Positions 517 through 27,887 of a DNA stretch of 39,577 nucleotides are shown here, piece after piece. The notes under the pieces are model-generated. The model ran no database searches, was not told the origin of the DNA, and worked only from the letters and a program-made list of their open reading frames with translations. Each line of letters begins with the position of its first letter. Within the stretch, counting starts at the first letter, position 1. The position numbers and the translations under genes are program-made. The stretch comes from a virus (lineage: Duplodnaviria; Heunggongvirae; Uroviricota; Caudoviricetes). The stretch is from the IMG/VR virus record IMGVR_UViG_2529292882_000015. The stretch is one strand, 5' to 3'.

Positions 517-531
517 TAATCAGGAGGAGTC

Positions 532-1071: not shown

Positions 1072-1115
1072 TCGATGTTAGTAACTTCAAGCCTATGATT
1101 CTTGAAGATAAAAAA

Positions 1116-8068: not shown

Positions 8069-8069
8069 T

Positions 8070-8081
8070 GTGACATGTCAC
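8070..8081. repeat. 12-bp perfect palindrome GTGACATGTCAC (copy 1 of 3)
   Basis: Exact palindrome; the TGA stop of the minus-strand gene 8078-8374 lies within it; adjacent to the 8043-8068 terminator. Confidence 0.7.
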
Positions 8082-8374
8082 GTTCCTTTTCTGAATGATA
8101 GCCGTTCGAAAAATGATGACATTCCACCGCAGACAATAGCAAAGATGATCCCACCAAAGAAGAGAAGGCCAGCCTGCCACCACTCCCACCGCCATACATC
8201 CACAGCGCCAACCATACCAACAATCGCTCCAACAAATGGAATATAGCTCACGATGAAAGCAATGGGGGCTGCAATTATCCAGTGCAATCCCCACCATGAT
8301 TCAAGCCCAGCCATAATTGCTGCCAACTGAAAAAGACCAACGACGATATAAACAATGAATCCTATAGCTTGCAT
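8078..8374 (-). CDS. Small Trp-rich multi-TM membrane protein
   Basis: 98 aa, about three TM helices, RBS AGGTGA; follows the last large ejection-protein gene. Confidence 0.5.
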   Translation of the reverse strand: MQAIGFIVYIVVGLFQLAAIMAGLESWWGLHWIIAAPIAFIVSYIPFVGAIVGMVGAVDVWRWEWWQAGLLFFGGIIFAIVCGGMSSFFERLSFRKGT

Positions 8375-8386
8375 GTAGTCACCTAT

Positions 8387-8560
8387 TTACCCAGTAAAAA
8401 TCAGAGGCCTCCCCTCAATAAGGCTTGCAACAAGAACTATTCCCTGTACAACAAAGATGAACCAGCAAATAGCTTGAGTCTGAGGGTTAAGAAAATATTT
8501 GTAGCGGTCAATAAATAACAACCCACCAGAAATTATCACACTCAAAATAATTAAAAACAC
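8387..8560 (-). CDS. Small hydrophobic membrane peptide (57 aa), not in the supplied ORF track
   Basis: GTG start with RBS AGGAAG; translation VFLIILSVIISGGLLFIDRYKYFLNPQTQAICWFIFVVQGIVLVASLIEGRPLIFTG, read by hand from the minus strand. Confidence 0.3.
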   Translation of the reverse strand: MFLIILSVIISGGLLFIDRYKYFLNPQTQAICWFIFVVQGIVLVASLIEGRPLIFTG

Positions 8561-8569
8561 AACACTTCC

Positions 8570-11044
8570 TTATTGCGGAGTGACATCCTGAGGTCGCCAC
8601 CAGTATGTCTGATTAAACTCTTTCTTCGAACGTTGCTCCATTTTACGCAAATAGCCTGGTGAAAAATACTCCTGCATCTGGTTAAAGATCATATGATCGA
8701 GAGCCGCCTTTAAGTACCAGAGATTCGCACCTGGCATCAAACCTTTCCCCAGCTTCACCAGATCACCACCAGTCTGCTCACTCTTCCCTTCCACAGCATT
8801 TAACGGTATGCCCTGAGCAATCTTCACTACGTCATCAACCAGACCAGCTACCGGGCCAAGCATCGACGCCAGTGCGCCGCTTCCGTACCTAGTGTGATCT
8901 GACAATAAAAAGTCACCGTAAAGGCCAAGACCACCACCTTTCAGTAGAGCACCAAGCCAGAATTTTGCGGCATCTTCTCCTGTCATCTCTCGAGGATTAC
9001 GACCAGACGCAAGGTCGTTAAGTTGCTGCGACAAAGCGCCAAGAATAGTCGTACTGGCAATAAACGTCGCAATATATGCCGCACGACCACCAGCAGACGG
9101 CATACCCATAGCGCGTGACCAGTGACGCATAACCACCGAGATAGGGAACGATTTAAACAGGAAAACACTTCTCGTTAATTCACCTTTCCATGTTCCACGC
9201 TGAATACCAGAACCGGTTATCAGTTGCTCACGTGCTCCCGGTGTAATAACAGCCATATCAACTTCTTCAGTTACGGCACCGAGCAGTTTACGCATTGCCT
9301 CAAATTTCACGCGTTCAGGCTCACCAAGATGTTTAACTGCTGAATCAGGGATACGCATAATGCTTTCCGGTGTCAGCATCGTATTATTGCCGTTCCCCCA
9401 GTCCTCCTGTTGCGCCAGCTTCCATACGCTCCAGTCTGTGTCAGTAATCCCTTTGCTTTTCAGGATGCGAAAATCAGAATCATCGAGGCTACGAAGGTCT
9501 GGTGTCCGTGACACTACTTCTCCCAGGCTTCCCATCATGGTTACGCCATAGGCGCGCTTGTGCGCATCTGACCATGCTGTAAGCCCACTGGCACGCATTA
9601 CCGCCGTTGCAGCCCAACGAGACACAGACGGCCCCATATTATCCATCGCCCAGCGGTTAACGCTGCCAAGTAGAGATTCCATCGCCAGACCAGCGCGGCG
9701 CGCCCGTGCAAGTTCTGTACGGTTCGTTGGGTCCATAGCTTCAAGCTGGTTGCGGAATAACTGGTTCATTGGAAGGTTGGTAACCTTCGCAGACAGATAC
9801 ATGGTTCCAAGATCAGAGAACGATGACAGCAACGCGGATCCGAGTCTGCTGGCAACCAACCAGTTGCGGATATTGTCAGACCATCGCGCGATGTGCGGAT
9901 TCGCTACAGGCTGTGTCTTTCCGGAAATAAAGTTGTACAGATTCTCTGTGTTGTTCGCCAGCCGCTCGACTTTACCGGTTTTACTCGGGTTAGCTGTTGC
10001 CGTTTCTGCCTTCACCTGATCAAGAAGAGAGCGGAAAACATGATCGGGGTTTGGGCCATATGTTTCCACCAGTGCAATATCTTTACTGATACCTTCAAGG
10101 TGACCGACCATGATTTCCCATAGAGAGCGATCGCCATAAAGTTGCTGATATTGCAGATAGGAATCTGCATCTTTGAAATGTATCTGTCGTGATGCATTAC
10201 CACGGTTAGCACGTGCGCCGGAAATTCGCATTCCGGTATCAGTAAGCTTATTCAGCCCACCAGTAGCGATCGTGTTATAAGCCTCTCCAAGAAATGCAGA
10301 CAACTCGGCATCGTTCATCAGTTGTCCATCGGCTCGGGTATAATATTTGCGATCCAGCTTACCTATAACATCGCTAACCCATTTATCTTTTGATACTGCC
10401 CCAACCTTTTCCATAGAATGATGTTGAGGGATCCCCCAGTTTTCGAGATAGCCAATGTCCCCACCAGCATCATTAAACCGGCGGCGAAGTAGATCTGTCA
10501 CTTCTCTCCACGCCTTAGCACCTTTTCTTGCTTTAGCATTGCCAGTATTTTGCCCTCGCATTTCATATACCAGGTCACGCACGCCCGCTTCATCTTCAAA
10601 CAGGCCAAAAAAGCGAGGATCAACTGCTTCAAATGCCTCCTGCAATTGACTCAATGCATAATCACGAGTGGCTTTTGTTCTGGATTCAACAGAGAGGAAA
10701 TTCGATTTACCGTCTGCATTAAAAGCAATAGTACGGTTAAGAGCGCCAAGTTTCCCATCAGCCCCTTGATAGCTATTGATAAATTTATCCAATCTCTGAC
10801 GTGCGGCTATAGTGAGGGCCACACGACGTTTCTTTAATGCCGCTTCTCGCTGTAATTCTTCAGATGCCAATTGTGCTGCACGATACAACCGTTCTGATTC
10901 GGAAAGTTGTCGCCACGACATCGGGTCATCACGAGCAATGGAGCGCATATTTCGATAAATGCGGTCTTCAATGTTCTGTATTTCTCGCGCCGTTAACGTG
11001 CGCTGCGCCGCCTGCTGGACCGCTTGTATACATTCCTGTCTCAT
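8570..11044 (-). CDS. Large internal virion/DNA-ejection protein (T7 gp16-like position)
   Basis: 824-aa ORF, last of three consecutive large genes downstream of the tubular-tail genes, matching T7-type core-protein order. Confidence 0.65.
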   Translation of the reverse strand: MRQECIQAVQQAAQRTLTAREIQNIEDRIYRNMRSIARDDPMSWRQLSESERLYRAAQLASEELQREAALKKRRVALTIAARQRLDKFINSYQGADGKLGALNRTIAFNADGKSNFLSVESRTKATRDYALSQLQEAFEAVDPRFFGLFEDEAGVRDLVYEMRGQNTGNAKARKGAKAWREVTDLLRRRFNDAGGDIGYLENWGIPQHHSMEKVGAVSKDKWVSDVIGKLDRKYYTRADGQLMNDAELSAFLGEAYNTIATGGLNKLTDTGMRISGARANRGNASRQIHFKDADSYLQYQQLYGDRSLWEIMVGHLEGISKDIALVETYGPNPDHVFRSLLDQVKAETATANPSKTGKVERLANNTENLYNFISGKTQPVANPHIARWSDNIRNWLVASRLGSALLSSFSDLGTMYLSAKVTNLPMNQLFRNQLEAMDPTNRTELARARRAGLAMESLLGSVNRWAMDNMGPSVSRWAATAVMRASGLTAWSDAHKRAYGVTMMGSLGEVVSRTPDLRSLDDSDFRILKSKGITDTDWSVWKLAQQEDWGNGNNTMLTPESIMRIPDSAVKHLGEPERVKFEAMRKLLGAVTEEVDMAVITPGAREQLITGSGIQRGTWKGELTRSVFLFKSFPISVVMRHWSRAMGMPSAGGRAAYIATFIASTTILGALSQQLNDLASGRNPREMTGEDAAKFWLGALLKGGGLGLYGDFLLSDHTRYGSGALASMLGPVAGLVDDVVKIAQGIPLNAVEGKSEQTGGDLVKLGKGLMPGANLWYLKAALDHMIFNQMQEYFSPGYLRKMEQRSKKEFNQTYWWRPQDVTPQ

Positions 11045-11049
11045 TTAAT

Positions 11050-12852
11050 TTAACCTCTCAAGAAACACGCCACAGCAACATCAAACAGGCTGGAATCCTG
11101 TATTGCCTGCTCACTTTCCCTGTTCGCTTCATCCAGTACTTCACGCGCACTGCGCGATTGTGGATTACCATCATCATCCAGCACGGTGATTATCATGTCC
11201 GGAGATTCAAGCAGCGAGTCTTCAGCTATACGCAGATCAATATCTCCTGCCGGATCTGCCATCATTTTTTGTTCTGTCTGTTGCAATATCTTACCGGGCT
11301 CAAAAGGAGCTACTTCGTCTGGCGTCCTGACCTCTGCTGTTTTATAGAATGAAACAGCCTGAGCATTAAGTTCACTTTCTGCCTGCTGTCGCCGTGCCAG
11401 TTCTGCTCGAGCTTCAAAAAACTGACCTCCAGGCTCGTGCGGCGCCAACGCGTTACGGGAAAATTCCAGGCGTTCTTGTGCCTGCCGGATTCGTTGGTCA
11501 ATATCGCGAATTCTGGCCTGTTTATCTGATCGAGCACGAGACAAAGCTTTACCGCTACCAGTTGGCTCTTCTGCAAGAATTTGTGCGCGCTGTTCAGTGA
11601 GATTGTCGATAATTCGTTGGCTATTAGCGATTTCAGACTGGTAAACCTGTCTATCGCCACGCGGCAAAAGCTGCGCAGCCTGTTCTTCAAGCAACCGATT
11701 TTCGATAGCGCGCGCCGTTACTCCATCATCTACAGATGACAGAGCCTCATTAACTGCCTGAGACAGCAGATTCTTGCGCCCAGGAATTTCACTGAAAGAT
11801 GCAGACTCAACAATGCTGGCAACGTCTACAGGTCTCCCCTGGCTAACATCAGACATAGCTTTTCGCAGAGCCTGAATGTGAGAATTGCGCGAAAGCACGT
11901 TGATCGGCACGCCGGGAGCAATATCAATTTCAGCATGATGAGCGGCATTCGCCGCCAGTGCAGCATCGATATCAACTGGTGAAAAGTTTGGTGCGTTTGT
12001 AGACTCGCCGCGAGAGTTAATAAATCTGCCGACTCCACCAAAAGCCACCCCAAGAACAGCATCAATAGCAATTGCCTGTCGATCCAACACATCATACTGG
12101 TTAGCCATTTCGCTATAGCCACCATCACGAAGCGTTTTTGCAGTAAGCCCGCGCTGTGCCATACCGAACGCAATATTTGTACCTGCGGCATAGGCAATAT
12201 CTGGCGTTGCACGTACTGCTGTTGCCGCGGCGCGTCGCACTGAACTTTCACCCGTCCGCGCAAGCTGAGCCGCCACACCTTCCGCTAGCGCACCACCAGC
12301 ACGTAACCCGAGACTCATAGGGATCAGTGTTCCGGCACCAGCAGTAATACCCTGCACTAATCCCGCTTCCTGCGCCGTCCTGAAATCAACCCCCTGCGCT
12401 GTCAGTCGTTCAAACTCAGAAAAACCCTGTAGCGAAGTTACCGCCGCAGCACCTCCGACCGGACCACCGAGCGTTGTACCGACAACAGCCTGCCCGCCCA
12501 TATCGAACAACCCATAAAGAACCTGCCCTGCGGTTCCGGTTGTCGCGGCATCAGGCGTCAGCCGCTTAACCTGCTGCTCTGCTAGTTTTCTCTGCTCGGC
12601 AATGTATGAAACTGAAGTGTCATTGAGCGAGGTGTTTTCGTTAACAAACTGAGCAATCGGGGATACGATTTTATCCATCCCTGCCCATAGCAACTGATCT
12701 GGCTTTGCCACCAGCCCGGAGTACAAACCAGACAATGCCGCTCCTACAGCATTGTCGAAAAAACCAACATCGCTGTTAAAGCCAGCTGGATTTGATGCTG
12801 CTTCGTCAAGCTGCTGATTCTGGTTTACTGGATTAAGGCCAAAGTAACTCAT
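11050..12852 (-). CDS. Internal virion/ejection protein
   Basis: 600-aa ORF, Ala/Gly-rich N-terminal part and a charged coiled-coil region; translationally coupled to the upstream gene. Confidence 0.65.
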   Translation of the reverse strand: MSYFGLNPVNQNQQLDEAASNPAGFNSDVGFFDNAVGAALSGLYSGLVAKPDQLLWAGMDKIVSPIAQFVNENTSLNDTSVSYIAEQRKLAEQQVKRLTPDAATTGTAGQVLYGLFDMGGQAVVGTTLGGPVGGAAAVTSLQGFSEFERLTAQGVDFRTAQEAGLVQGITAGAGTLIPMSLGLRAGGALAEGVAAQLARTGESSVRRAAATAVRATPDIAYAAGTNIAFGMAQRGLTAKTLRDGGYSEMANQYDVLDRQAIAIDAVLGVAFGGVGRFINSRGESTNAPNFSPVDIDAALAANAAHHAEIDIAPGVPINVLSRNSHIQALRKAMSDVSQGRPVDVASIVESASFSEIPGRKNLLSQAVNEALSSVDDGVTARAIENRLLEEQAAQLLPRGDRQVYQSEIANSQRIIDNLTEQRAQILAEEPTGSGKALSRARSDKQARIRDIDQRIRQAQERLEFSRNALAPHEPGGQFFEARAELARRQQAESELNAQAVSFYKTAEVRTPDEVAPFEPGKILQQTEQKMMADPAGDIDLRIAEDSLLESPDMIITVLDDDGNPQSRSAREVLDEANRESEQAIQDSSLFDVAVACFLRG

Positions 12853-15362
12853 TGCGGAATATCTCCGGAGAATCTCTGACGCTTCTGTGTCAGATCAAGA
12901 ACAACAGGAGAACCATCATCCTTCAGCAGATATCCAGTCCCAAGTTTTACCAGGTACTGACTATCGCCGTAACTTTGCAAACCATACTGACCAGGCGGTG
13001 TTTTTATCCCTGTGCCGACAACTTGTTCATTCCAAGCCTGATTAACCTGCTTATCGAATTGCTCTGCAGACATTCCCCACGGCAAAAGAACATTCCCCAT
13101 TCCGTTATAGTCATGCACGCCACCTGTAGCTACGTTAACAGCCTGTTTCCAGATATCATTGTCAATTTCGCCTGATACCACGCCTTTTTTCGCCATCACA
13201 CCAGCGTAATAGTCCTTTGCGATCTCGTATGCCATTGATGCCCCCTGAGCATCACCAGCAAATGCATCCTTCACCATGTCAGAAAACTCAAGGCGAAGAT
13301 CAGCATCTTTAGGCATCGGAATACCTTTCGCATCATCAGTACCTTTACGAGCCGCCGCGCCAGCAAGAATTGTCTGCGCAGCGGTTTCAGGAGACACGGA
13401 AACATCCGGATTAAACCAGTTTTTTTCTGCCAAAATACTACCAGGCTTATCCATCAGTATCCCGGCAACGGCAGCAGATGGAGCGTTGGCACTGATCTGC
13501 TGTAGTGCTGACATATACACCTGCCCACCGCCAGTGCTTTGCCTGATGGTATCGAGATATGCTGCCTGTTGGGAAACGGGCGCATCACGAAAGAAAACAC
13601 CGATCTGATTGGCCTCGTCTTTGGAAAAGAACGTCAGTGGAGTGCCATATGACTTGGCAAGGTCACTGACCTGAGCGGCACGCAAGGCAACGCTCTGTCC
13701 AAAGTTATCCTTATTGCTCATGTCGATAGGCTTTGCCTGTCCGGCGGCAAGAGAGAACTGCACAGGATCCGATTGCCGCTGCTTTATCACCTGATTTGCA
13801 GCCGAAACAACGTTGTCATAAAGAGCTGCGCGTGCCGCATACCCCTCCCCTGTCTCACCAGTATCCGGGCGTAATTGCTCAACATATGCTGTAATGCTGC
13901 TTGTCGGCATGTTGCGGAAAGAACCTATATACTGTCCGGCGATCTGCGTATTCTTAAACTCGGTATATCGCAGGTTTCCTTCTCTGACACCATAAGCTGC
14001 AATAAAATCATCCTCACCAGGTGGGTTAGGAAATTCAACGCCACGCATATACGCAGCTGTCGCATCACGAACCTGGCTGTCAATCATCGTTTTATATTCA
14101 GCCTGCTGCTGCCGACGCAGTTGATCCGCCTGTCGCATAAAACTTGCCTGAGCCTCAGGAGATGCCGCATCGAATGCTGCATTACCGGTATAGCGTTTGG
14201 TGTTGGTTGGAATTGTTGATAAACCAAGTGCTGCACTGACACCAGCAGTTAACTGCTGATCACTGTATGGCTGACTACCGTTCTCATGATGGATAATGGC
14301 TGCACAAAGCGCCTTCAGGGTATCAGGATTTGATGCATCGAGAGGCTCATCAGCAGAAACGCCAAGTTGTTCGCACACTGCTTTGATATACGACATAGTG
14401 TCATTTTTATCAGTAGGCGGTGCCCAGCGATTAATTATCTCGCTGACGGTATCGATACCCTGCCGCTGATACGACATCAGGTTACGCCCTAATGCACGAA
14501 TCCCGTGCTCAGGTGTTTCGAATTTAGCAAATCGACCATCATCACCGGTCTGGCCTACCCACGGATTAGTTTTGCTGTATTCGAGATTTCCTGGGTTATT
14601 GTTGCGTATGCCACGGGCACGCTCGGAAGAGTCATTATCTGCTACAGCACGGCGAGCTCCAGCAGCAGTATCACTTAACTCGCCATTACTTTGGATGAAT
14701 GCGGTCGCATTGTTTGCCGACCACTGGGACAATGCGGCATCAGCAACCTTCTCTTTAAACTCGATTTTCTTGGCCTGTATTTGCTCGTCGCTCCAGCCAT
14801 GCGCAACGCCGTAATCCTCAATTTGCTGGAAAGTTTGCTTATTAGCCAATACGTATGCGGCGTTGTCGCCATACAATGCTGCGGCATTTTTACCATTGTT
14901 CAGCAGCGTCGCCTGAAACTGGCCTTCTTCGTAGGCATTTATTTGCCCTATCTCGTGCCGCCCGGCCTGCGCAGTGAACTGAATACGCTGCTGCTGCGCC
15001 TGTTGCATGAAAGCATTACGGGCCTGTTCATCCGGCAGCGACATAGCCAGTTGTTCGATCTGAGCATCAAACTGCTGCGTATACTCCTGACCTTTTCCAA
15101 TAGCATTTTTCCCTTTCAGGTTAAGCAAACCTGTTTCAGGGTTATTCAACAGATCGCTGCTTATCTGGCTTAAGCTAAGAGAAGCATCCTGAGCCATAGC
15201 AACATTCGCACGCTGTTTTGCCTGCGCAACAATACCTGCATATTGCTCTGCAACATCGCCAAGTACATCACCGACATTTGGTGTCTGAAACGATGAGAAT
15301 CCCTGAGTCGAAATCCCTCTGCTCTGAACCTGACGGCCCGATGTTGTTGGTACAACTGGCAT
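12849..15362 (-). CDS. Internal virion/ejection protein (T7 gp15-like position)
   Basis: Start placed at the ATG at 15362 (MPVVPTTSGRQ) with RBS GGAGG 7 nt upstream, overlapping the upstream stop (TAATG). Contains a GIRNNNPGNLEY segment that may belong to a cell-wall-degrading domain (unverified). Confidence 0.65.
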   Translation of the reverse strand: MPVVPTTSGRQVQSRGISTQGFSSFQTPNVGDVLGDVAEQYAGIVAQAKQRANVAMAQDASLSLSQISSDLLNNPETGLLNLKGKNAIGKGQEYTQQFDAQIEQLAMSLPDEQARNAFMQQAQQQRIQFTAQAGRHEIGQINAYEEGQFQATLLNNGKNAAALYGDNAAYVLANKQTFQQIEDYGVAHGWSDEQIQAKKIEFKEKVADAALSQWSANNATAFIQSNGELSDTAAGARRAVADNDSSERARGIRNNNPGNLEYSKTNPWVGQTGDDGRFAKFETPEHGIRALGRNLMSYQRQGIDTVSEIINRWAPPTDKNDTMSYIKAVCEQLGVSADEPLDASNPDTLKALCAAIIHHENGSQPYSDQQLTAGVSAALGLSTIPTNTKRYTGNAAFDAASPEAQASFMRQADQLRRQQQAEYKTMIDSQVRDATAAYMRGVEFPNPPGEDDFIAAYGVREGNLRYTEFKNTQIAGQYIGSFRNMPTSSITAYVEQLRPDTGETGEGYAARAALYDNVVSAANQVIKQRQSDPVQFSLAAGQAKPIDMSNKDNFGQSVALRAAQVSDLAKSYGTPLTFFSKDEANQIGVFFRDAPVSQQAAYLDTIRQSTGGGQVYMSALQQISANAPSAAVAGILMDKPGSILAEKNWFNPDVSVSPETAAQTILAGAAARKGTDDAKGIPMPKDADLRLEFSDMVKDAFAGDAQGASMAYEIAKDYYAGVMAKKGVVSGEIDNDIWKQAVNVATGGVHDYNGMGNVLLPWGMSAEQFDKQVNQAWNEQVVGTGIKTPPGQYGLQSYGDSQYLVKLGTGYLLKDDGSPVVLDLTQKRQRFSGDIPQ

Positions 15363-15907
15363 TATAATCCTCCGGGTAATCTGGTTCCTGCTGCTGCCCC
15401 GATTGACGCAGGAGTGCTTTGAGTAAACGGACTCCACGTCCCACCAAACATCTGGTACGCACCGTATGCCTTCAGAGGCGCAGTGAGCAATGTTGTTGCT
15501 GCTCCCACATTCCCCTGTTTACGGGCTGAACTGGCTTCTGCTTTATAGTTGGCAGCCTGAACCTGATAACCGTAAGCCTCGCGTTGCGCGTTATTCACCG
15601 TCGTCAGCGAATCAAGAGCGCCAAACTGGGCAGTGTCGCCAAATATATCCAGCGCGTTACCTGTAGATAAATCAGCGCCGGTAGCCCCCATTGTCGCCGC
15701 CTGTGTACCAAGCCGCTGTCGGGTCTCTCTGCGCCGTTGCTCAGCTTCAGCGTTACCTCTGTTTATTGCATCATTTGCCTGAGCTGTGGCTATATCTGCG
15801 TTCGCTTCTGCAACCTTCGAGGCATACTTTCCCTGTTGGTACTGGGTGTATGCCTGAATGCCACTCATGGCGAGCATTGCGCCACCAGCAATAACCGGAT
15901 CGCACAT
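15362..15907 (-). CDS. Internal virion protein (T7 gp14-like position)
   Basis: 181-aa Ala/Gln-rich protein between the tubular-tail genes and the large core proteins. Confidence 0.55.
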   Translation of the reverse strand: MCDPVIAGGAMLAMSGIQAYTQYQQGKYASKVAEANADIATAQANDAINRGNAEAEQRRRETRQRLGTQAATMGATGADLSTGNALDIFGDTAQFGALDSLTTVNNAQREAYGYQVQAANYKAEASSARKQGNVGAATTLLTAPLKAYGAYQMFGGTWSPFTQSTPASIGAAAGTRLPGGL

Positions 15908-19770: not shown

Positions 19771-19780
19771 ATACACTCCT

Positions 19781-19802
19781 GCAATAAAGGGGCCGAAGCC
19801 CC
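19781..19802 (-). terminator. Intra-operon hairpin with T-run (partial terminator)
   Basis: GGGGC-TTCG-GCCCC followed by TTTATT on the minus strand, between the 19821 and 19770 genes. Confidence 0.4.
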
Positions 19803-19820
19803 TTGTCTGATTCGCGAGGC

Positions 19821-20165: not shown

Positions 20166-20166
20166 C

Positions 20167-20604
20167 TTAACCAGTTACTTTTGAGCGGATCGGATACGGC
20201 GTATTGGCATCAACATCAAGACTGATACCCGCAGTGAATTCGCCAGCCGTTAGTGGGCCAGTTGCGACGGAGTAGTTAACACGCAGATATCGCTGAACAC
20301 CGGCAGGCACCTTTGCAGAAACAACTCGTTTACCTGCTGTCAGGGTGGTCTTTGCCAGTGCACCACTATCATAAATAGTGGTCCATGAGCTGTTATCCTC
20401 ACTCGTCTGCAACTGGATGTTTACAGTTGCATCACCGCTTGCTGCGGCGGCTGTGTTAACCAGCGCCCAAAACTCAAGCGGGTAACCCACGCCGATATCA
20501 CGACGTTTTCCGTCAATTGGACCGAGATCGATTACGTCAGTAGAAGCCGCGGTATTCGTAACCGCCTGAGCTTCGGAGAACATCAACAGTTTGTCGGTGA
20601 TCAT
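20167..20604 (-). CDS. Putative capsid decoration/accessory protein
   Basis: 145-aa beta-rich protein directly downstream of the major capsid gene; RBS GGAG. Confidence 0.5.
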   Translation of the reverse strand: MITDKLLMFSEAQAVTNTAASTDVIDLGPIDGKRRDIGVGYPLEFWALVNTAAAASGDATVNIQLQTSEDNSSWTTIYDSGALAKTTLTAGKRVVSAKVPAGVQRYLRVNYSVATGPLTAGEFTAGISLDVDANTPYPIRSKVTG

Positions 20605-20655
20605 CTTCTTTCTCCATTAGTGGGTCTGTTACGACCCACAGGTTAATAACAGGCG

Positions 20656-21642
20656 TTACACCACGCGGGCTTCTGTTTCCAGAAGCGCATCAGTTTCACG
20701 GATTGGTACACCACGGAATGAAGTCCACCACTCGCCTTCAGTCTCTTTTACGCTGATAGCCAGAGATGTTTTCTCCAGAGACTGCAGATCAAGAGCCTGG
20801 CCTACAGTGCGGTTCATGTAGAACACCGGGCGGCCCATGCCACGGTTTGGAATGCGATGCAGTGCTTTAACCATCAACTTCGCAATATTTGCGGCAGAGG
20901 AAGGTTCTGAAAGATTGCTGACATCGATGTTTGCAATGCGAACAACATAACGCCAGTCACGCAGAGCAAGTCCGTTGTCCCATTTGTAATGGGTGCGATA
21001 GCCTTCGTACTTGCCGCCATTAGCATCTTCCAGTGTCACCTGGCCTTTATCTTCCATCTGGATGCCAGCCTTCTGCCCTTTCGGGAAGATGCCATGCACG
21101 GTGTTTTCGCCCCACACCACTAACCAGATTGAGGTGTTATCTGTACCCGTGCCACCAGCATCAATGATGTTCTGAGCATTACCCGCAGACAGGCTGGAAT
21201 AGCGGGAGGACAGTCCCATAAACTGCTGAGGGTTAACGCTGGAATCACCATAAAACAGCGTCTGCGCCATCTGCTGATTCATCGCTTCAATAAATGCGCG
21301 GTCTTCAGACAGGCGGAATTCTGCGGTATTGCCGTTCAGATCAGCCAGTGACTTATCGACTTCAGCATAGGTTTCCAGCATGCCAACGGAATCGGTTACC
21401 TGCACTGTGGTTGATTTGCTTGGCTGTACGCCATAGTTCAGCAAACGCCAGGTAGCTGAAGGTAAACCAGAACGAATGGTGGTTCGGTGTCCGGTAGGAA
21501 GGTTCCCTTCGACAAAAGGCATATCCTGAAGGATCGGGTTAGTTTGACCGAGAAGCTCGATAATCTTATCGACTTTCCCGTTTGGATCGACGCGCTTACC
21601 CCAGTCAGCCAGCGTTAGCGCAGTTAAGCCTTTAACAGCCAT
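20656..21642 (-). CDS. Major capsid protein
   Basis: 328 aa, directly after the scaffold-like gene; a hairpin (GTGGGTC...GACCCAC, 20620-20639) follows its stop, a common feature after capsid genes. Confidence 0.75.
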   Translation of the reverse strand: MAVKGLTALTLADWGKRVDPNGKVDKIIELLGQTNPILQDMPFVEGNLPTGHRTTIRSGLPSATWRLLNYGVQPSKSTTVQVTDSVGMLETYAEVDKSLADLNGNTAEFRLSEDRAFIEAMNQQMAQTLFYGDSSVNPQQFMGLSSRYSSLSAGNAQNIIDAGGTGTDNTSIWLVVWGENTVHGIFPKGQKAGIQMEDKGQVTLEDANGGKYEGYRTHYKWDNGLALRDWRYVVRIANIDVSNLSEPSSAANIAKLMVKALHRIPNRGMGRPVFYMNRTVGQALDLQSLEKTSLAISVKETEGEWWTSFRGVPIRETDALLETEARVV

Positions 21643-21656
21643 TGTTATTTCCTCTC

Positions 21657-22358
21657 TTATTTGCCATAGAGCACTTCGGCCGCACTACGCTGGCCTTCAT
21701 TACCACCGGTGACCATGCCATCTTCAGACATCGCCTTTCCGATTTTCACGAACGTTTTGACCAGATCAGGGTGATTACCCAGCCCGGTGGTGTTCAGATA
21801 TTCTTTGAGTTCAGGTGTCCCAAACTGGTCAAGCGCACGCTGTGCGGCGCTAAGGTTAGAAATCAACTTGTCGCCACCGATTTCTTTGTCAGCTTTTACA
21901 TCCGCAGCCCACTGCTCGGTTGTTTTCTGCCAGGCTTCTGCCTGGCGCTGCTGAACACCTGCCAGAATCTTCGGATAAGCATCAACCAGCTTTTGCGCTT
22001 GTTCGTTGGTCAGGTTAAGTTCTCGCGCCACCGGCTCGAATTCCTTCAACGCTTCTGTATCCAGCTCTACGCCTTCGGCAGCCTGAAACTCGTACTTCTC
22101 AGGCGCCCCCTCTGGTTTATCGCCGTCCTTTTTTTCATCCTGCTTATCGTTTTCAGGCTTTTTGTCATCAGCAGGTTTATCGCCATCAGCAACAGGTTGT
22201 GGCTTATCACCTTCCTGTTGTGATGGATCACCAACTGGAGCAGGGTTATCACCTGCATGCGCTGACGGTTCTGACGCAGCCGGAGCTGCCCCGCCATCGG
22301 CTGGCTGCTCATTGCAAAGACGGCGATACAGCAAACGCTCAAATAAATTCATGATCAC
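21657..22358 (-). CDS. Scaffolding-like protein
   Basis: 233 aa with an acidic low-complexity region (DKPADDKKPENDKQDEKKDGDKPEG) and helical C-terminus, between portal and capsid. Confidence 0.55.
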   Translation of the reverse strand: MIMNLFERLLYRRLCNEQPADGGAAPAASEPSAHAGDNPAPVGDPSQQEGDKPQPVADGDKPADDKKPENDKQDEKKDGDKPEGAPEKYEFQAAEGVELDTEALKEFEPVARELNLTNEQAQKLVDAYPKILAGVQQRQAEAWQKTTEQWAADVKADKEIGGDKLISNLSAAQRALDQFGTPELKEYLNTTGLGNHPDLVKTFVKIGKAMSEDGMVTGGNEGQRSAAEVLYGK

Positions 22359-22651
22359 TCCTGTTCACTGGCCTCTTTGGCCATCTTCAAATACTGTTCA
22401 GGGCAATGAGCCATAACGCGCTGAAACAGTTCCAGCGCCAGATTGCGTTGCCCCTCATTAAATGCCATTGCCATAGCGTCCATCGGTGAGATAGCGGAAA
22501 ACACACGGCCTTTCTCCAGCACCGACCAGACAACGCGACGCCCCTGTTCACTGCTCATGACAAAGCGAATGTCATCAATTTCACGCTTCGCCATGTCACG
22601 TTGCTTACGGGCGTTTTCTTCTTTCAGTTGATCGTCTTCGTAATCTGTCAT
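22355..22651 (-). CDS. Small protein of unknown function downstream of portal
   Basis: 98-aa charged ORF, translationally coupled to both neighbours. Confidence 0.45.
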   Translation of the reverse strand: MTDYEDDQLKEENARKQRDMAKREIDDIRFVMSSEQGRRVVWSVLEKGRVFSAISPMDAMAMAFNEGQRNLALELFQRVMAHCPEQYLKMAKEASEQE

Positions 22652-24327
22652 TGTGATTGCCCCCCCTGACCACTAACTGCATTCGCCATAGCTGACAAAA
22701 CACTCGGATCCGAAGTTTTAGCTTCGCTTAGCGTCTTGGCACCCTGTGCCGCCGCCATCGCCATCGCCATCATTTGTTGCTGCTGTTGCTGCTGTGCCCG
22801 TTGCTGGCGAGCCTGCTCAACCTGTTCCTGCGGAACAATGACGGTTGGAGACACTCCGGACATATCAGCAAATGCATCGATCGCCTGATCAACGTTGAGT
22901 TTGTCGATAGCTTCTGGTTTCGCTTTCGCAAGTTGACCAATGAAGTTAACCGTGGACGCCAGACTGGACAGGCCGATAGACTTCTGCGCCTGAGCCATGA
23001 CGGAAATGTATTCGACCTTCAGGGGCATGCCTTCCATCGCGTCAGGCGGTGGCGGCAGCATGTTTTTACGCACCATCATCGAGAAAGCGCGGTCAATGAG
23101 AGGATTAAGACATTCGTCGTTCAGACGCTCCAGAACCGGCCCCAACATCAGAAGTTTTTCTTCTTTCATTTCGATCACCGCTTCAACAGGCATCGAGCGG
23201 GTATTGATGTTCTGCAACATCATGAACAGATCGACAAAGTAGGCGCTGTTAATGATTTGACGAGTGTCCTGAATGTCTGCCACCAAATCTGCTGTACTGG
23301 GGTTAACCAGATAAGCAGGCCTGAAGCCATCCTGACCAGTAATCTGATCGATATACGTGATGTCGCCAGGAAGAAGGGAGGCGCGCTGATTCTTGAGGGA
23401 AGTCGGAGCAACCATCGGCGGATTGGTGGCTTTATCAATCAACTGCGACTTGCGCTTCTGGAGAAGCTGCAATGCCTTAACAGGTCCAAGCGCCAGCATA
23501 CCCGGGCATGATGATCCATAAACATCTTCGCCGTTAACTTCCCAGCGCGGAGCCATAATTGGAAACTCATCGAATCCTGACTCACGCAACAACTTGTCGT
23601 TATCGCCACCAACCTCGTAATAAACCGATTTGAATGGCTTGTTCTTGCTATCCAGCTTCGATGTATCGCGGTCAATGTTCGGGTAAACCGAATGCATCAC
23701 TTCAATCCACTTCTCGTAGGTACCGCTTTCCCACATGCTTTTTACGGATTCGCTGACGTTATTTAGCCCGAACTCCTGAACAAGCTGACGAACAGTCATA
23801 GAGAACTTGCGAAAACAGGTGTCCACACTGCCACGAGGTGAGTTAGCCAGGTAGTAACTGCCTATCGGGAATGGCATTGTGCGAATAATGTCCTCGTCAT
23901 CCTCCAGCACCGCCATTGCACCAGTGCTGTATGTGCCGAGGCTTCCGTATAACTGCGGCAGCGACTGATAGAGATTCGACTTATTGAACATATCGTTCAT
24001 GCGGTTCTGCACCGCCTCAAGCCACAACTTAACAGGGCCATAATCCATCATTTCAGGATCTGGCGTAGCCAGGCGAAACCACGGACGCGCGGGGCTTGTG
24101 ATGCCTGACATCATGCCGCTGGCGAGAGTGCGCGCCGCCATAGTCCCGGTCGAATCAATAATGCGTGTATTGCGTCGATCGTTACGGTTGACCTCAGAAG
24201 TCAGAAAGCGGGAACCACGTGGGTTGATGTAATCACTCAACTCGCGCCAGTGCGGCTCGAACGACTGACGCTCGCTTTCAAGTTGTGCGAACTGTTTGTT
24301 CAATCGCTCTTTAGTTGTTTCCGCCAT
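22648..24327 (-). CDS. Portal protein
   Basis: 559 aa, Gln-rich C-terminus, first large gene after terminase; RBS GGAG. Confidence 0.75.
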   Translation of the reverse strand: MAETTKERLNKQFAQLESERQSFEPHWRELSDYINPRGSRFLTSEVNRNDRRNTRIIDSTGTMAARTLASGMMSGITSPARPWFRLATPDPEMMDYGPVKLWLEAVQNRMNDMFNKSNLYQSLPQLYGSLGTYSTGAMAVLEDDEDIIRTMPFPIGSYYLANSPRGSVDTCFRKFSMTVRQLVQEFGLNNVSESVKSMWESGTYEKWIEVMHSVYPNIDRDTSKLDSKNKPFKSVYYEVGGDNDKLLRESGFDEFPIMAPRWEVNGEDVYGSSCPGMLALGPVKALQLLQKRKSQLIDKATNPPMVAPTSLKNQRASLLPGDITYIDQITGQDGFRPAYLVNPSTADLVADIQDTRQIINSAYFVDLFMMLQNINTRSMPVEAVIEMKEEKLLMLGPVLERLNDECLNPLIDRAFSMMVRKNMLPPPPDAMEGMPLKVEYISVMAQAQKSIGLSSLASTVNFIGQLAKAKPEAIDKLNVDQAIDAFADMSGVSPTVIVPQEQVEQARQQRAQQQQQQQMMAMAMAAAQGAKTLSEAKTSDPSVLSAMANAVSGQGGQSQ

Positions 24328-24341
24328 TTCAATGACTCCGG

Positions 24342-24548
24342 TTACTGACCAAGCAGCGTTTTACCGCTGGTATTAGCGGTTGATGTGTCGCCCTGAGAAC
24401 CGGTAAGCAGCGTAGAACTACGACCAGCAGCAGCGCGACGGCGACGTGTTTCTTCGTCGCGGGCATCAACAACGGCGGCATCCTGCTCCTGTGGTGCTGC
24501 CTGAACTTCTGGTGTTGCAGGCACTGATGGTGAGCTACCCATGCACAT
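24342..24548 (-). CDS. Small protein of unknown function upstream of portal
   Basis: 68 aa; its upstream region (GGAGTCATTGATATG) is nearly identical to the portal initiation region (GGAGTCATTGAAATG). Confidence 0.35.
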   Translation of the reverse strand: MCMGSSPSVPATPEVQAAPQEQDAAVVDARDEETRRRRAAAGRSSTLLTGSQGDTSTANTSGKTLLGQ

Positions 24549-24638
24549 ATCAATGACTCCGTACGCAATTAAATTATTACCAATTTAACCACATATGATT
24601 TATTTATCGTAGATGGTTGACATTTAACGCACAAATTA

Positions 24639-24653
24639 TTACCTTTCAGGTAA
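24639..24653. promoter_or_regulatory. Operator-like palindrome TTACC-N5-GGTAA (site 4 of 13), next to a TTGACA -35 element
   Basis: TTACCTTTCAGGTAA; TTGACA at 24617-24622 lies 16 bp upstream on the plus strand, in the divergent region between the portal operon and the tRNA unit. Confidence 0.5.
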
Positions 24654-24975
24654 CTAAAGAGTTCATTCCGGTTACTAACCTGACTGGCTTGTCGTTAAAT
24701 TGAACAGGTGGAGTGAGCTTTTATTTTGAGCAGTACGGCGTATGGCACATGCGCCGATAGCGGTCTGGATACGTTTAAGGGGCACCCTCCCTTGCTCGGG
24801 CAAACGAACCAGGTAGCCGGAATGTGCAAGTCGAGCGGTTTTATTCCGCGCACGGGGATTCACCATCCCGGCGATTCGGTGTGACGCCTCGGAAGAGACG
24901 AGGGTACAACGATGATAGCATTTATGGAGCCGCGACAAAGTGTGGCGCCTTAACAGGCTAAGTGCTCTCAGCGTT

Positions 24976-25052
24976 GTGGCATTAGCTCAGCTGGACAGAG
25001 CAACCGCCTTCTAAGCGGTTGGTCGCAGGTTCGAATCCTGCATGCCACGCCA
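24976..25052 (+). tRNA. tRNA-Arg, anticodon UCU (reads AGA)
   Basis: Cloverleaf folded by hand: acceptor GTGGCAT/ATGCCAC, D-arm GCTC-AGCTGGACA-GAGC, anticodon stem ACCGC/GCGGT with loop CTTCTAA, T-arm GCAGG-TTCGAAT-CCTGC, discriminator G and encoded CCA. Confidence 0.9.
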
Positions 25053-25095
25053 GAATCACGCCTAAGGACCGTGATGCCAGAAGCTCCAGGTGCTT

Positions 25096-25137
25096 GGCGG
25101 TGATGGTTTCCCTTGAAGGACTATCACCGCCCTTTTT
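25096..25137 (+). terminator. Hairpin with T-run downstream of the tRNA
   Basis: GGCGGTGAT ... ATCACCGCC (9-bp stem, 18-nt loop) followed by CTTTTT. Confidence 0.4.
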
Positions 25138-25167
25138 ACAGCAGGACGCCATTGCGATGACTTCATG

Positions 25168-25183
25168 CTGTAAACCAGTACAG
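25168..25183 (+). promoter_or_regulatory. Weak LexA-like box (CTGT-N8-ACAG) upstream of the moron gene
   Basis: CTGTAAACCAGTACAG has the right half-site spacing, but the centre is not AT-rich. Confidence 0.3.
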
Positions 25184-25249
25184 CCACGGAAGGCATAACT
25201 CATTGCTTCCAGTTCTCCCGGTTCGCCGGGCATTTTTTAAGGTGAGATT

Positions 25250-25606
25250 ATGAACGACCAGCAAATCGAAAAAGAAATCGTTGAGAAAGGCAAAACGGCA
25301 CCGCGAGTTACGCCTCAATATATCGAAAGCATCATTCTTGAAGAGCATTTCTTTACTGCTTATGACGGCATTCGTGCTGCCAATATGGGCGTTGGCGATT
25401 CATGGACAGCGCATAAATCTACAGACCTCCTGACTTTCTGCGTACTGGTGCTGAAGAATGGCTTCACCGTCACCGGAGAAAGCGCCTGTGCAAGTCCGGA
25501 AAATTTTGATGCAGAAATTGGTCGGAAGATTGCCCGGCAGAATGCTGTAAACAAAATCTGGATGCTCGAAGGTTACTTGCTGAAGCAGAAGTTAAGCGAG
25601 CAATAA
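25250..25606 (+). CDS. Conserved phage moron protein of unknown function
   Basis: 118 aa; RBS AGGTGAG preceded by hairpin CCCGG-TTCG-CCGGG plus T-run; plus strand between TerL and portal; motif VTGESACASPENFDAEIGRKIA. Confidence 0.6.
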   Translation: MNDQQIEKEIVEKGKTAPRVTPQYIESIILEEHFFTAYDGIRAANMGVGDSWTAHKSTDLLTFCVLVLKNGFTVTGESACASPENFDAEIGRKIARQNAVNKIWMLEGYLLKQKLSEQ

Positions 25607-25610
25607 CACC

Positions 25611-25622
25611 GTGACATGTCAC
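25611..25622. repeat. 12-bp perfect palindrome GTGACATGTCAC (copy 2 of 3)
   Basis: Exact palindrome 4 nt after the moron stop codon and 4 nt before the terminator hairpin. Confidence 0.7.
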
Positions 25623-25623
25623 A

Positions 25624-25653
25624 AACAGCCAGCCTATGAGCTGGCTTTGTTTT
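25624..25653. terminator. Bidirectional rho-independent terminator between the moron gene and the TerL 3' end
   Basis: AGCCAGC-CTATGA-GCTGGCT flanked by ACAAAC upstream and TTTGTTTT downstream. Confidence 0.55.
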
Positions 25654-25696
25654 ATCCTCACCAGAGGATATCAGCAGTATTATCCCCACCAGCGGA

Positions 25697-27172
25697 TTAA
25701 GCATAAGGGTCATAATCCGTTATGGCCCTTCCCTGCTGGCTTTGCTGTCCTGGTATATTTATGCGTTTCGAGACCGGGAAAGCAAACGTCAGCAATAGCG
25801 CATCGCCTTTCCCCGGCGAACGCCCAAGTCGATCCTTGATATCTTCCTTCGGTTCGATAACGATTTTACCGTCCACGCGAACTTTGTACTCTGCCGTCGA
25901 CAGGTCGTCCGCTGTTTCCTGGTCATCCAGCATGCCGCCGAGCCTCAGCCATGTCTTGCATGAGTTGAACATCTCCCCACGCTTGTTGAGCATCTGCGGG
26001 TCAGTAGACGCGCCACCGAACGGAACAAGTTGCCATGTACGACCCCAGCCGTCACCGATTGACTTCAGACCAGTTCCGTAACCGAAGTCGATGAACACTG
26101 CGTCAGCCTGATACTGGTCTTCAAAGTCAGCGATACGCTTCGCCATAATCAGATCGTCGGTAGTCTTGTTGCCAGTCCACAGCACCTTACTGTGTAGCCC
26201 CTGCCGCAGGTATATCACCGCGTCATCAACGCCTGAATATGCCGGGTCAACACCGATTATCACCGGAGCATGCGCCACCTGCGCAGCGGTTACCACCCGT
26301 TTCATTGCCTCATCAGTAAGACCGGTAGGGATAAACTGCAATTCAGATGCATCAGGGAATATGCCGCGCACACGGATTTTAACGAAGTCGCTGTCTTCCC
26401 CGTAGTCATCAACCCATTTCTGCAACTGCTGTTTGTTAGTGCCTTCCACCGTTCGGCTGTCAATCTGCGCAGTTTTCCAGCGGTGTTTATATTTGCGGAA
26501 ACATTCGCGAAAACGCCCGGTGTTACGTGTAGGGTTTCCGAACGCCACCCAGATAATCTCAGTGTCTTCGTCCGTTAGCGCACCCTCGGCAACTTCCCAC
26601 ACCAGATCCGCAATGTTCGACGCTTCATCAAACACCACGATGATGCGTTTGCGCTCGTTGTGTAGTCCGGCGAATGCCTCAGTGTTGTGCTCAGACCAGG
26701 GGATTGCGTCAGCTCGCCACCGCTTGTCGTGCCCAGGATCATTGCTGTACATCGCGGTAGCGGTACAGGTAAACCAGTCTTTCGTGATAGCAAGGTTCGA
26801 CCACTTGATAATTTCCGGCCAGGTCTTCGTTCGTAGCTGGTTGTCGGTGTTGGCGGTCACCACGACCTTACAATCCTCGCAAGTGGACATGCCCCAGTTG
26901 ATCAGCATTGAGATGAATGCGGATTTACCAATACCGTGACCAGAAGCGCGTGCCAGCATAAGCGGCTGATAGCGCGTCTCTGGATTCTGCAGGTGATCAC
27001 GTATCTCTCGGAACGCATCAGCCTGCCACTGACGTGGGCCGGTAGCATGTGCCAGTTCAGTCCCCTCTTCCCCCCACGGGAACGCATAGAGGGCATAGCC
27101 AAGCGGATCGTGAGTGAACCCTGCAATATCCTCGATCAACTGCTCTTCAGGAGATAACGCTGTATCTTTCAC
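25697..27172 (-). CDS. Terminase large subunit
   Basis: 491 aa with Walker A-like ARASGHGIGKS and a nuclease-type C-terminal region; GTG start overlaps the TerS stop (GTGA). Confidence 0.85.
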   Translation of the reverse strand: MKDTALSPEEQLIEDIAGFTHDPLGYALYAFPWGEEGTELAHATGPRQWQADAFREIRDHLQNPETRYQPLMLARASGHGIGKSAFISMLINWGMSTCEDCKVVVTANTDNQLRTKTWPEIIKWSNLAITKDWFTCTATAMYSNDPGHDKRWRADAIPWSEHNTEAFAGLHNERKRIIVVFDEASNIADLVWEVAEGALTDEDTEIIWVAFGNPTRNTGRFRECFRKYKHRWKTAQIDSRTVEGTNKQQLQKWVDDYGEDSDFVKIRVRGIFPDASELQFIPTGLTDEAMKRVVTAAQVAHAPVIIGVDPAYSGVDDAVIYLRQGLHSKVLWTGNKTTDDLIMAKRIADFEDQYQADAVFIDFGYGTGLKSIGDGWGRTWQLVPFGGASTDPQMLNKRGEMFNSCKTWLRLGGMLDDQETADDLSTAEYKVRVDGKIVIEPKEDIKDRLGRSPGKGDALLLTFAFPVSKRINIPGQQSQQGRAITDYDPYA

Positions 27173-27765
27173 TGATTACCATCCTGACGTTCTTTGAGTC
27201 GCTTCCTGGCTGCTGCTATGCGATCAGCAATTGTCACATTCACATTAACATCCAGACGTTCTTTGAACGCGTTGACATCAACATGCTTACCAATCAGCTC
27301 AAGGTTCTTCACCTTGTCAGGCCATTTAATTTTTTTGAGGATTGTCTCTATCGAATCCTCGTTCATGTTCATGATGGTCGATGACAGATCAAAGCCACTA
27401 AGCGTAGTGCGCCAGATTTTCGGCCACTCACGGATTGGTTTAAGGCTCCCATCGTCGTTGAGGATGTCGATCACGTCCATCTGGTCGATCTCCACCAGGC
27501 GCATGAGAACGTAATCAGCACTGACGCGCATTCGTTTGTTGCGCTCCTCCATCAACTCGGCAATCCGTTTTTGAATGCGTTCATCGCGCATCATGACACT
27601 GGCTTTAACTGCCGCTGTATTTGGGGAGAATCCTGCATTAATCGCTGCCTGAGTCTGGTTTTCAGGCGTTTTGATGTATGACTGGCAATAAGCCTCCTGC
27701 ATTGCTGTTAGTGGCTTAAATTGCGTTGATTTGCGTTTATAGGTTTTAGGTTCAGCAGGCATCAT
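27169..27765 (-). CDS. Terminase small subunit
   Basis: DNA-binding N-terminal region (LTAMQEAYCQSYIKTPENQTQAAINAGFSPNTAAVKASVMMRDERIQKRIAEL) typical of small terminases; start placed at ATG 27765 (MMPAEPK); directly upstream of TerL. Confidence 0.75.
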   Translation of the reverse strand: MMPAEPKTYKRKSTQFKPLTAMQEAYCQSYIKTPENQTQAAINAGFSPNTAAVKASVMMRDERIQKRIAELMEERNKRMRVSADYVLMRLVEIDQMDVIDILNDDGSLKPIREWPKIWRTTLSGFDLSSTIMNMNEDSIETILKKIKWPDKVKNLELIGKHVDVNAFKERLDVNVNVTIADRIAAARKRLKERQDGNQ

Positions 27766-27782
27766 AACCACCGTGGTAATAG

Positions 27783-27797
27783 TTACCGTTGTGGTAA
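27783..27797. promoter_or_regulatory. Operator-like palindrome TTACC-N5-GGTAA (site 5 of 13), overlapping direct repeats upstream of TerS
   Basis: TTACCGTTGTGGTAA; overlaps two ACTATTACCAC direct repeats (minus-strand reading) about 20 bp upstream of the TerS start. Confidence 0.5.
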
Positions 27798-27807
27798 TAG
27801 TAACATG

Positions 27808-27834
27808 CAAAATAAAGCCGCCATAGTTGGCGGC
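27808..27834 (-). terminator. Rho-independent terminator between the early-right operon and TerS
   Basis: Minus strand GCCGCCA-ACTA-TGGCGGC followed by TTTATTTTG, about 40 bp upstream of the TerS start. Confidence 0.5.
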
Positions 27835-27875
27835 AGTATTCAAAGTCCATCAAATTCATCATGCACAATCTACTC

Positions 27876-27887
27876 GTGACATGTCAC
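27876..27887. repeat. 12-bp perfect palindrome GTGACATGTCAC (copy 3 of 3)
   Basis: Exact palindrome; the TGA stop of minus-strand gene 27884-28222 lies within it in the same register as at copy 1. Confidence 0.7.

Follow-up and report, generated by a model that had tools for sequence, protein, structure and literature searches.

A twelve-base palindrome at three operon ends of an epsilon15-type prophage and its probable partner, a small cysteine-rich protein of the phrog_536 family

The window analyzed here, which is the whole 39,577-nucleotide (nt) stretch of IMG/VR virus record IMGVR_UViG_2529292882_000015, is an epsilon15/phiV10-like (Uetakevirus) prophage, reversed in orientation with respect to the phiV10 record, and it harbors exactly three copies of the palindrome GTGACATGTCAC, here termed A (27876-27887), B (25611-25622) and C (8070-8081). 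In phage orientation, copy A marks the end of the early-right operon, directly before the small terminase gene, and overlaps the TGA stop codon of the minus-strand gene at 27884-28222, which encodes a 112-residue cysteine-rich protein of the phrog_536 family (that of phiV10 gp55, epsilon15 gp49 and N15 gp46). The small and large terminase genes (25697-27843, minus strand) are flanked by copies A and B, the latter lying at the end of the terminase unit, where the large terminase gene converges with a moron unit (24976-25606, plus strand) made up of a tRNA gene (24976-25049) and a gene of the Gp49/66 family (Phage_gp49_66, 25250-25606). This gene, located on the minus strand of the phage, stops 4 nt ahead of copy B, which is placed between that stop codon and the terminator of the moron unit. 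Finally, copy C closes the structural operon, convergent with an antirepressor-like unit that starts with the isrK and C4 RNAs and continues with a Bro-N gene, and it contains the TGA of the last structural-operon gene (8078-8374, minus strand) in the same register as in copy A (G/TGA).

A consensus scan for hairpins followed by a T-run identified a G+C-rich hairpin with a T-run, the signature of an intrinsic terminator, beside each of the three copies, and all three lie 5' of that terminator in the direction in which it has its T-run. Terminator tA (27807-27834, minus strand; stem 27834 to 27817, GCCGCCAACTATGGCGGC then TTTATTTT) is found 41 nt past copy A, between the palindrome and the small terminase gene. 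Terminator tB (25627-25656, plus strand; stem 25627-25646 followed by TTGTTTTA) starts 4 nt past copy B and serves the moron unit, and terminator tC (8042-8069, minus strand; stem 8069 to 8052 followed by TGTTTTTA) adjoins copy C with 0 nt in between, its hairpin being common to the late structural operon and to the convergent antirepressor/moron unit. No further matches to GTGACATGTCAC are present in the window even with two mismatches, inverted GTGAC/GTCAC pairs occur in it with a 2-bp spacer only, and exact copies appeared in 0 of 100 dinucleotide-preserving shuffles of its sequence. These results uphold what a sequence-only reading of the window had put forward, namely that three exact copies are unlikely by chance, that they sit at gene 3' ends with two in-register TGA stops and a hairpin with a T-run nearby, and that they mark module boundaries at the ends of three transcription units.

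Other interpretations of these positions were considered and discarded. The phiV10 record is cut inside copy A, as might be expected of a physical genome end or cos site, but the epsilon15 and Tyrion records are cut elsewhere, and the phiV10 record was opened right after the last stop codon, so that the cut in copy A does not correspond to a physical end. Use of the palindrome as a -35 element would yield only weak promoters at copy A (GTGACA-18-CATGAT) and copy C (GTGACA-18-AATGAT), and these are not conserved in relatives. A near copy at the Rz stop codon of epsilon15 has no counterpart in the window. The frame of the cysteine-rich gene stays open for about 47 codons past its UGA-C stop, through the terminator and towards terS (27740-27886, minus strand), and for longer in epsilon15; UGA-C is a leaky stop context, and the open frame is probably due to chance (about 10%).

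The exact 12-mer occupies the same three homologous positions in Salmonella phage epsilon15 and, once the record ends are joined, in Enterobacter phage Tyrion. In phiV10 the palindrome is likewise found at all three, copy A presenting one mismatch and being divided by the record ends, and dozens of prophages carry it at the same positions next to different neighboring genes. A set of 80 viral contigs was fetched via the protein and is hence free of bias towards the site. Here 75 of 79 loci have an exact copy A and 52 of about 77 an exact copy B, the variants at both consisting of scattered single mismatches, and the early regions lying upstream of the gene in these 80 loci, 297 kb in all, contain no palindrome. 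Conservation of copy A was also seen in 15 of 21 loci from genome sequences, and copy C is kept in phiV10, epsilon15, Tyrion and many IMG/VR stretches that differ in their last genes. The comparison of related prophages that the sequence-only reading had suggested thus reveals that palindrome and hairpin are retained as a block at B and C while the adjoining genes change. The sequence following copy A varies: some phages have the terminator and terS there, others a umuD-like gene behind a LexA-box promoter, and others still a gene whose ribosome-binding site begins directly after the palindrome. In many relatives (L007:10348-10420, L008, L012, L029, L033, L047 and L058) that LexA-box promoter (TTGACT-17-TATACTGT-N8-ACAG), with the umuD-like or another gene, is inserted 6-7 nt past copy A. 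The palindrome may be used as a practical marker of module junctions in these prophages.

Over the 583 kb formed by the window, phiV10, epsilon15, Tyrion, the N15, Yersinia and Vibrio loci and the 21 genome loci, 46 occurrences of GTGACNNGTCAC were found where about one is expected. In 2.53 Mb overall, half-site pairs with a 2-bp spacer number 324, a count inflated by the fact that about half of this sequence was retrieved through a match to the 14-mer itself, against 1, 0 and 1 pairs with spacers of 1, 3 and 4 bp. A terminator is present on the 3' side in 39% of 128 distinct contexts, compared with 10% of random positions, an approximately fourfold difference.

The extended motif, Y-GTGAC-NN-GTCAC-R, was found with one protein family, phrog_536, and this association persists at large evolutionary distances. 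The 21 genome loci, which come from different Enterobacterales species and were retrieved by the protein (54-85% identity), contain GTGAC-NN-GTCAC in 20 cases; the stop codon lies inside the motif, in the same register, in 10 of them, and in five more the motif is displaced 6-205 nt past the stop, indicating that it is tied to the 3' end of the gene rather than being a by-product of its coding sequence. The genome of N15, whose gp46 is 35% identical, harbors exactly three copies of GTGACTGGTCAC in 46 kb, at the gp46 stop, inside repA and near the antirepressor locus. Vibrio phages (about 33% identical protein) present two to three copies, one of them some 230 nt past the gene, inside a small open reading frame (ORF), and another 19 nt ahead of the start of terS. 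A Yersinia P2-like phage carries an exact copy and, 33 bp from it, a near copy, and Providencia lambdoid prophages carry two, one within the 3' end of a cII-like gene and the other in the leftward operon. Among metagenomic members at 25-32% identity, the stop codon of one falls within GTGACGCGTCAC and is followed by a terminator after 20 nt, another has two copies in 10.6 kb, and two carry a spacer-1 and a spacer-3 variant, respectively. The family is small (211 representatives in 1.84 billion proteins) and phrog_536 is the sole protein that the window shares with the N15 and Vibrio loci. Based on this sequence evidence, the palindrome is most likely the DNA site of the 27884-28222 protein. 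The sequence-only reading had named this protein as a candidate binder, and its distant co-occurrence with the site, its predicted ribbon-helix-helix-like fold and its TraR-like half, both described below, lend strong support to that choice.

The motif is not exclusive to phrog_536 phages, but it is strongly enriched with this family. Several groups of IMG/VR matches to the 14-mer were set aside as unrelated: in one, the 14-mer encodes VTCH within a DnaJ-like zinc-finger gene, in another it coincides with the start of Q82-type genes (MRDMSQ), and in a third it belongs to iteron-like arrays within replication-initiator genes of high-GC phages. In the latter, 4-12 GTGAC/GTCACG half-sites lie within replication-initiator-like ORFs (L046:10730-10920, L094:1850-1960, L132:10800-10890, L065 and L075) and resemble origin iterons built on the same pentamer. 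The exact 12-mer is also found in lambdoid prophages, right after the stop of a YdaS-like cro gene or in the last codons (R-D-M-S) of a cII-like gene (L050:1546, L061:438, L130:4784 and L135:7761; L020:6138 and L051:6848), a location equivalent to that of nutR in lambda, and some of these stretches have no phrog_536 gene within the available DNA. N15 (L150) contains a second three-copy palindrome family, GTGCGACC-NN-GGTCGCAC, of 18 bp (at 35930, 41124 and 45561), with one copy just upstream of the annotated late -35/-10 and terminator and another on an annotated terminator stem.

As to the host background, in which the sequence-only reading had proposed a count, GTGACNNGTCAC does not occur in a small sample of 100 kb, a Mu-like prophage among it, from an E. 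coli chromosome that has the terminase region of this prophage in a copy with 98% identity. The element is not annotated in the epsilon15 and phiV10 records, nothing relevant to the 12-mer, to phrog_536 or to late regulation in these phages was found in the searchable literature, and the protein-site pair appears to be undescribed. A family that public records label as hypothetical or, on an unstated basis, as a transcriptional regulator, and that is spread over epsilon15/phiV10-type phages, N15-type phage-plasmids and Vibrio, Yersinia and Providencia phages, is provided here with a precise putative DNA target and a function that can be checked.

The 112-residue protein, recorded as hypothetical, has no Pfam or NCBIfam match, and neither the single sequence, nor the shallow alignments A1 and A2, nor the A2-based model yielded anything significant in Pfam, NCBIfam, PDB sequence searches or Foldseek (PDB and BFVD). 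In the AlphaFold model (predicted local distance difference test, pLDDT, 66.6), the N-terminus forms a basic helix, a segment leading into two helices comes next, and the cysteine-rich tail is poorly defined. The predicted elements amount to a basic helix, a ribbon-helix-helix-like unit and a Cys4 knuckle, and the N-terminal half looks like a ribbon-helix-helix DNA binder. A family profile based on a 67-sequence alignment retrieved E. coli YbiI (E 0.0099) and TraR (E 0.013) from the PDB, and its direct alignment to TraR with hhalign reached 77% probability (E 2e-5; residues 47-105, 55 columns), the first knuckle, CxxCGxx[I/L]P, being conserved in the family and common to TraR. TraR, as the depositors' names of entries 6N57 and 5W1S indicate, is a binder of the RNA polymerase secondary channel. 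The protein thus looks like the combination of a sequence-specific DNA-binding half and a half of polymerase-binding type, both of which fall under curated thresholds. No Pfam match to any Q family (lambda, 21 or 82) was obtained for it, and the other genes scanned in the early-right operon included no Q-like regulator.

From the observed conservation of the site, its co-occurrence with the protein, the fold resemblance and the adjacent terminators, we infer binding, polymerase contact and a direction of effect, and propose, with a probability of roughly 45%, that the protein bound at the three sites acts on RNA polymerase at operon ends. The protein would be produced at the end of the early-right operon and would dimerize through its ribbon-helix-helix-like N-terminal domain, the dimers occupying the three sites, and its TraR-like C-terminal half would dock on RNA polymerase. 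As each of the three units (early-right operon, terminase unit and structural operon) has a site at its end, within transcribed DNA that separates a stop codon from an intrinsic terminator, the bound protein would meet the elongating polymerase just before the terminator and might alter its stopping. The favored outcome would be read-through at A and C, which would couple early to late expression and late expression to the tail-fiber and lysis genes. The TraR-like half, the position of the gene as the last early gene before the late genes, the absence of a Q-like regulator among the other genes scanned, the conserved packing of stop codon, palindrome and hairpin and the fourfold excess of terminators on the 3' side all speak for this proposal, and the order of gene, site, terminator and late genes is the same in the window, epsilon15, Tyrion and the Pantoea, Rahnella and Citrobacter loci. 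Such a role may account for the activation of late genes in Uetakeviruses, among whose scanned genes no Q-like late regulator was found.

A number of observations weigh against this interpretation. The AlphaFold model is only moderately confident, the similarity to TraR stays under the Pfam gathering score, the second CxxC knuckle of TraR is replaced by a single cysteine and a conserved cysteine 8-9 residues after the first knuckle, and the aligned helix of TraR requires a free N-terminus, which the 112-residue protein is without. Moreover, N15 carries a separate Q homolog besides its phrog_536 protein, copy B precedes a terminator only in the direction of the moron, so that read-through there would generate antisense terminase RNA, and in 24 of 79 close relatives a gene is inserted between copy A and the terminase terminator. 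Adjacency to terminators is also lineage-specific, the copies of N15, Vibrio and Providencia lying in coding DNA, before a ribosome-binding site or after cro. The termination or antitermination role raised by the sequence-only reading is hence backed by the anatomy of this lineage, but it does not extend to those copies.

The main rival to a role on RNA polymerase stems from the fact that the phage half-sites are those of matS, the binding site of MatP in the Ter macrodomain of the E. coli chromosome, a resemblance absent from the sequence-only reading. The matS pattern is GTGAC[AG]N[TC]GTCAC, with GTGACATTGTCAC as the E. coli consensus (PMC8669397, PMC3603311), and the phage palindrome equals GTGACATTGTCAC minus one central base, with a spacer of 2 bp instead of 3 bp. 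Chance is an unlikely explanation, which we estimate at a few per cent after allowing for the many motifs that could be recognized. Bobay and colleagues examined 500 prophages of Escherichia and Salmonella, found matS in none of them and argued for counter-selection against it (PMC3603311). In agreement, 3-bp-spaced copies are absent from the window and from every Uetakevirus, N15 and Vibrio sequence, and from the 2.53 Mb as a whole. Outside that set, two are present in L238, where a genomic island encodes a distant member of the family (25% identity). There the canonical matS pattern is matched by the 13-bp GTGACACCGTCAC, 590 nt downstream of the gene; the spacer-3 copies map to positions 4287 and 10972, the second in the host flank, and may be host matS sites. 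One may then envisage a private MatP/matS-like system in which the protein-site pair organizes or protects phage DNA rather than its transcription, by bridging sites, by unloading or excluding the host MukBEF condensin or by disturbing host MatP, the 2-bp spacer hiding the prophage from the latter. Besides the identical half-sites, the avoidance of true matS and the matS-like 13-mer beside one distant member, the presence of two to three dispersed sites per genome at gene-relative positions that differ by lineage suits such a system. So does the host range, since all hosts identified for phrog_536 are Enterobacterales, Vibrio or Aeromonas, except for one metagenome bin labelled Advenella, and MatP/matS occurs in Enterobacterales, Pasteurellales and Vibrionales, Aeromonas not being listed (PMC10945525). 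The protein, however, shows no significant homology to MatP: alignment of the 67-sequence profile with MatP gave at best 9.6% (E 0.0034), over helices only, and the two Pfam domains of MatP (N-terminal PF06303 and the C-terminal ribbon-helix-helix domain PF17414) were not hit even at E<=1-10. The search for MatP homologs returned only near-identical E. coli sequences, useless for a profile. At 112 residues the protein is also too short to hold PF06303 in addition to the domains found, and membership of the MatP family was rejected. MatP consists of an N-terminal DNA-reading four-helix bundle, accompanied by a C-terminal coiled-coil, and neither is seen in the phage protein, whose C-terminal half instead resembles an RNA polymerase-binding factor. 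Furthermore, the tight packing of stop codon, palindrome and hairpin at three sites would go unexplained. On the sequence data, neither does the protein belong to the MatP family nor is the site matS, and we regard a private system of this kind as improbable. The likeness to matS extends to the inverted GTGAC/GTCAC half-sites, the A/T-rich center, the dispersed multiple copies and a ribbon-helix-helix element, which the MatP binder has and which is proposed for the phage protein. On the other hand, 324 of 324 cases across Uetakevirus-type and most other lineages have a 2-bp spacer, the phage site adjoins the gene for its own 112-residue protein, and its density is 3 per 40 kb, compared with about 3 per 100 kb for matS. 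The occurrence of matS minus one base in prophages that avoid matS raises the question of whether they mimic, evade or exploit the MatP/MukBEF machinery.

The remaining alternatives are less probable still. An RNA element, in the form of a small hairpin in 3' untranslated or intercistronic regions that is read by the Arg-rich N-terminus and is either nut-like or involved in the control of translation or stability, would be congruent with the basic N-terminal helix and with the location of every copy in transcribed sequence, be it after stop codons, before a Shine-Dalgarno sequence (N15 gene 47, Vibrio terS and several A-site variants) or after cro in some lambdoid phages. Nevertheless, the predicted fold amounts to 4 bp and a tetraloop at -1.2 kcal/mol, no better than shuffled sequence, the palindrome matches no Rfam family (the Rfam hits of the window being C4, isrK and tRNA elsewhere), and all Vibrio copies are flanked by C...A, which cannot pair in RNA. 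The ten half-site bases are invariant across the family, without covariation over 25-100% protein identity, and the two central bases vary (AT, AC, CT, AG, TG, GC and CC), which is the opposite of a nut/boxB-type element with its stable hairpin, covarying stem and conserved loop. Most copies have symmetric Y...R flanks, the one exception being L016 (T...T). Such invariant half-sites around a variable center fit a symmetric dimer on duplex DNA and not a structured RNA, making the RNA element quite improbable and disfavoring the RNA processing role contemplated by the sequence-only reading. The different moron genes that abut the same palindrome and hairpin at B and C, and the different cassettes after A (a LexA-controlled umuD-like gene, other ORFs or the terminator), could also point to a module-boundary sequence that promotes cassette exchange, either alone or when cleaved by a phage protein. 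However, homologous exchange needs more than 12 bp, the protein showed no motif typical of a recombinase or nuclease, the copies within coding regions are conserved at wobble positions, and strict association with one DNA-binding-like protein across unrelated phage types indicates a protein operator; a pure recombination-boundary role is accordingly less likely, and we would give this explanation very little weight. Lowest of all, we place a host-factor site or a coincidental motif unrelated to the neighboring protein: the half-sites do match those of a host protein, and the 14-mer does appear in the unrelated coding contexts and iteron-like arrays of other phages, but the motif is missing from the host DNA sampled, and it accompanies phrog_536 in N15, in Vibrio, Yersinia and Providencia phages and in metagenomic contigs, where the loci compared have no other gene in common.

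Several features of the window surrounding the palindromes deserve mention. The terS leader, between tA and the terS start, contains two direct repeats, ACTATTACCAC, which together form an operator-like element TTACC-N5-GGTAA (approximately 27765-27806, minus strand), the same motif that the epsilon15 record annotates, as ATTACC-N5-GGTAAT, for repressor operators 5' of terS, gp3 and the tail-fiber gene. These annotated operators support the division of the late genes into such units, and they would imply that the prophage repressor touches each late unit directly. Above the Rfam gathering score, an isrK Hfq-binding RNA (6124-6200) and a C4 antisense RNA (6220-6306, plus strand) are located directly upstream of, and overlapping, the start of the Bro-N antirepressor-like gene (6202-7041), and constitute a control module similar to immI of P1/P7 on an epsilon15-type phage, in an operon that ends at copy C. 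The tRNA at 24976-25049 (plus strand), annotated as tRNA-Arg in relatives, overlaps an ORF (24982-25233, minus strand) corresponding to phiV10 gp04. At the end of the window (1-1140), two plus-strand genes past the lysis cassette, which encode a glycine-zipper/TraT-like lipoprotein and a DUF5384 protein, are followed by a bidirectional terminator (approximately 1112-1140), and may be either prophage-end morons or host flank.

This putative pair can be compared with several known systems. With TraR/DksA-type C4 zinc-finger factors, such as F-plasmid TraR and E. coli YbiI, the protein shares a helix followed by CxxCGxx[I/L]P...C, and the nin regions of lambdoid phages, where the phrog_536 gene of the Providencia prophage is also located, commonly contain TraR-like genes. 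In contrast to that family (PF01258), it has other cysteines in place of the second CxxC, is without the free acidic tip of the N-terminal helix and appears fused to an N-terminal half of sequence-specific DNA-binding type, below Pfam thresholds. The arrangement at copy A recalls that of lambda Q at pR'-tR', where the regulator gene is likewise the last of the early operon and is followed, right after its stop codon, by its DNA site, a short leader with an intrinsic terminator and the first late genes; the phage protein, however, presents no Q-family similarity, and its site is a perfect palindrome that is not embedded in a promoter and recurs at two more operon ends. The phage ribbon-helix-helix repressors Arc and Mnt of P22 and the plasmid global regulators KorA and KorB, with their dispersed palindromic operators, are small dimeric proteins that bind short palindromes at several positions of a mobile element, as proposed for the phage protein, but their operators overlap promoters, whereas the sites described here are found at 3' ends, before terminators and inside genes. 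A further analogy can be drawn with RfaH and ops, a 12-nt element in transcribed DNA that recruits its factor to the elongating polymerase and suppresses downstream termination, as we propose for the phage pair, although ops, an element of 5' leaders, is asymmetric and is recognized in the single-stranded non-template DNA, and RfaH is a NusG paralog. In its widest form, which we deem unlikely, the proposal would make phrog_536 a new class of site-specific RNA polymerase regulators, in which a ribbon-helix-helix dimer parks a TraR-like module on a matS-like palindrome inside operons and passes it to the polymerase, overriding or enforcing the terminator, with an operator borrowed from, or kept one base off, that of the host matS/MatP system; phage antitermination would then have one more route in addition to N, Q and put. 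A phage regulator with dispersed operators is a known kind of system, and what would be new here is the combination of domains and an operator one base off the matS register.

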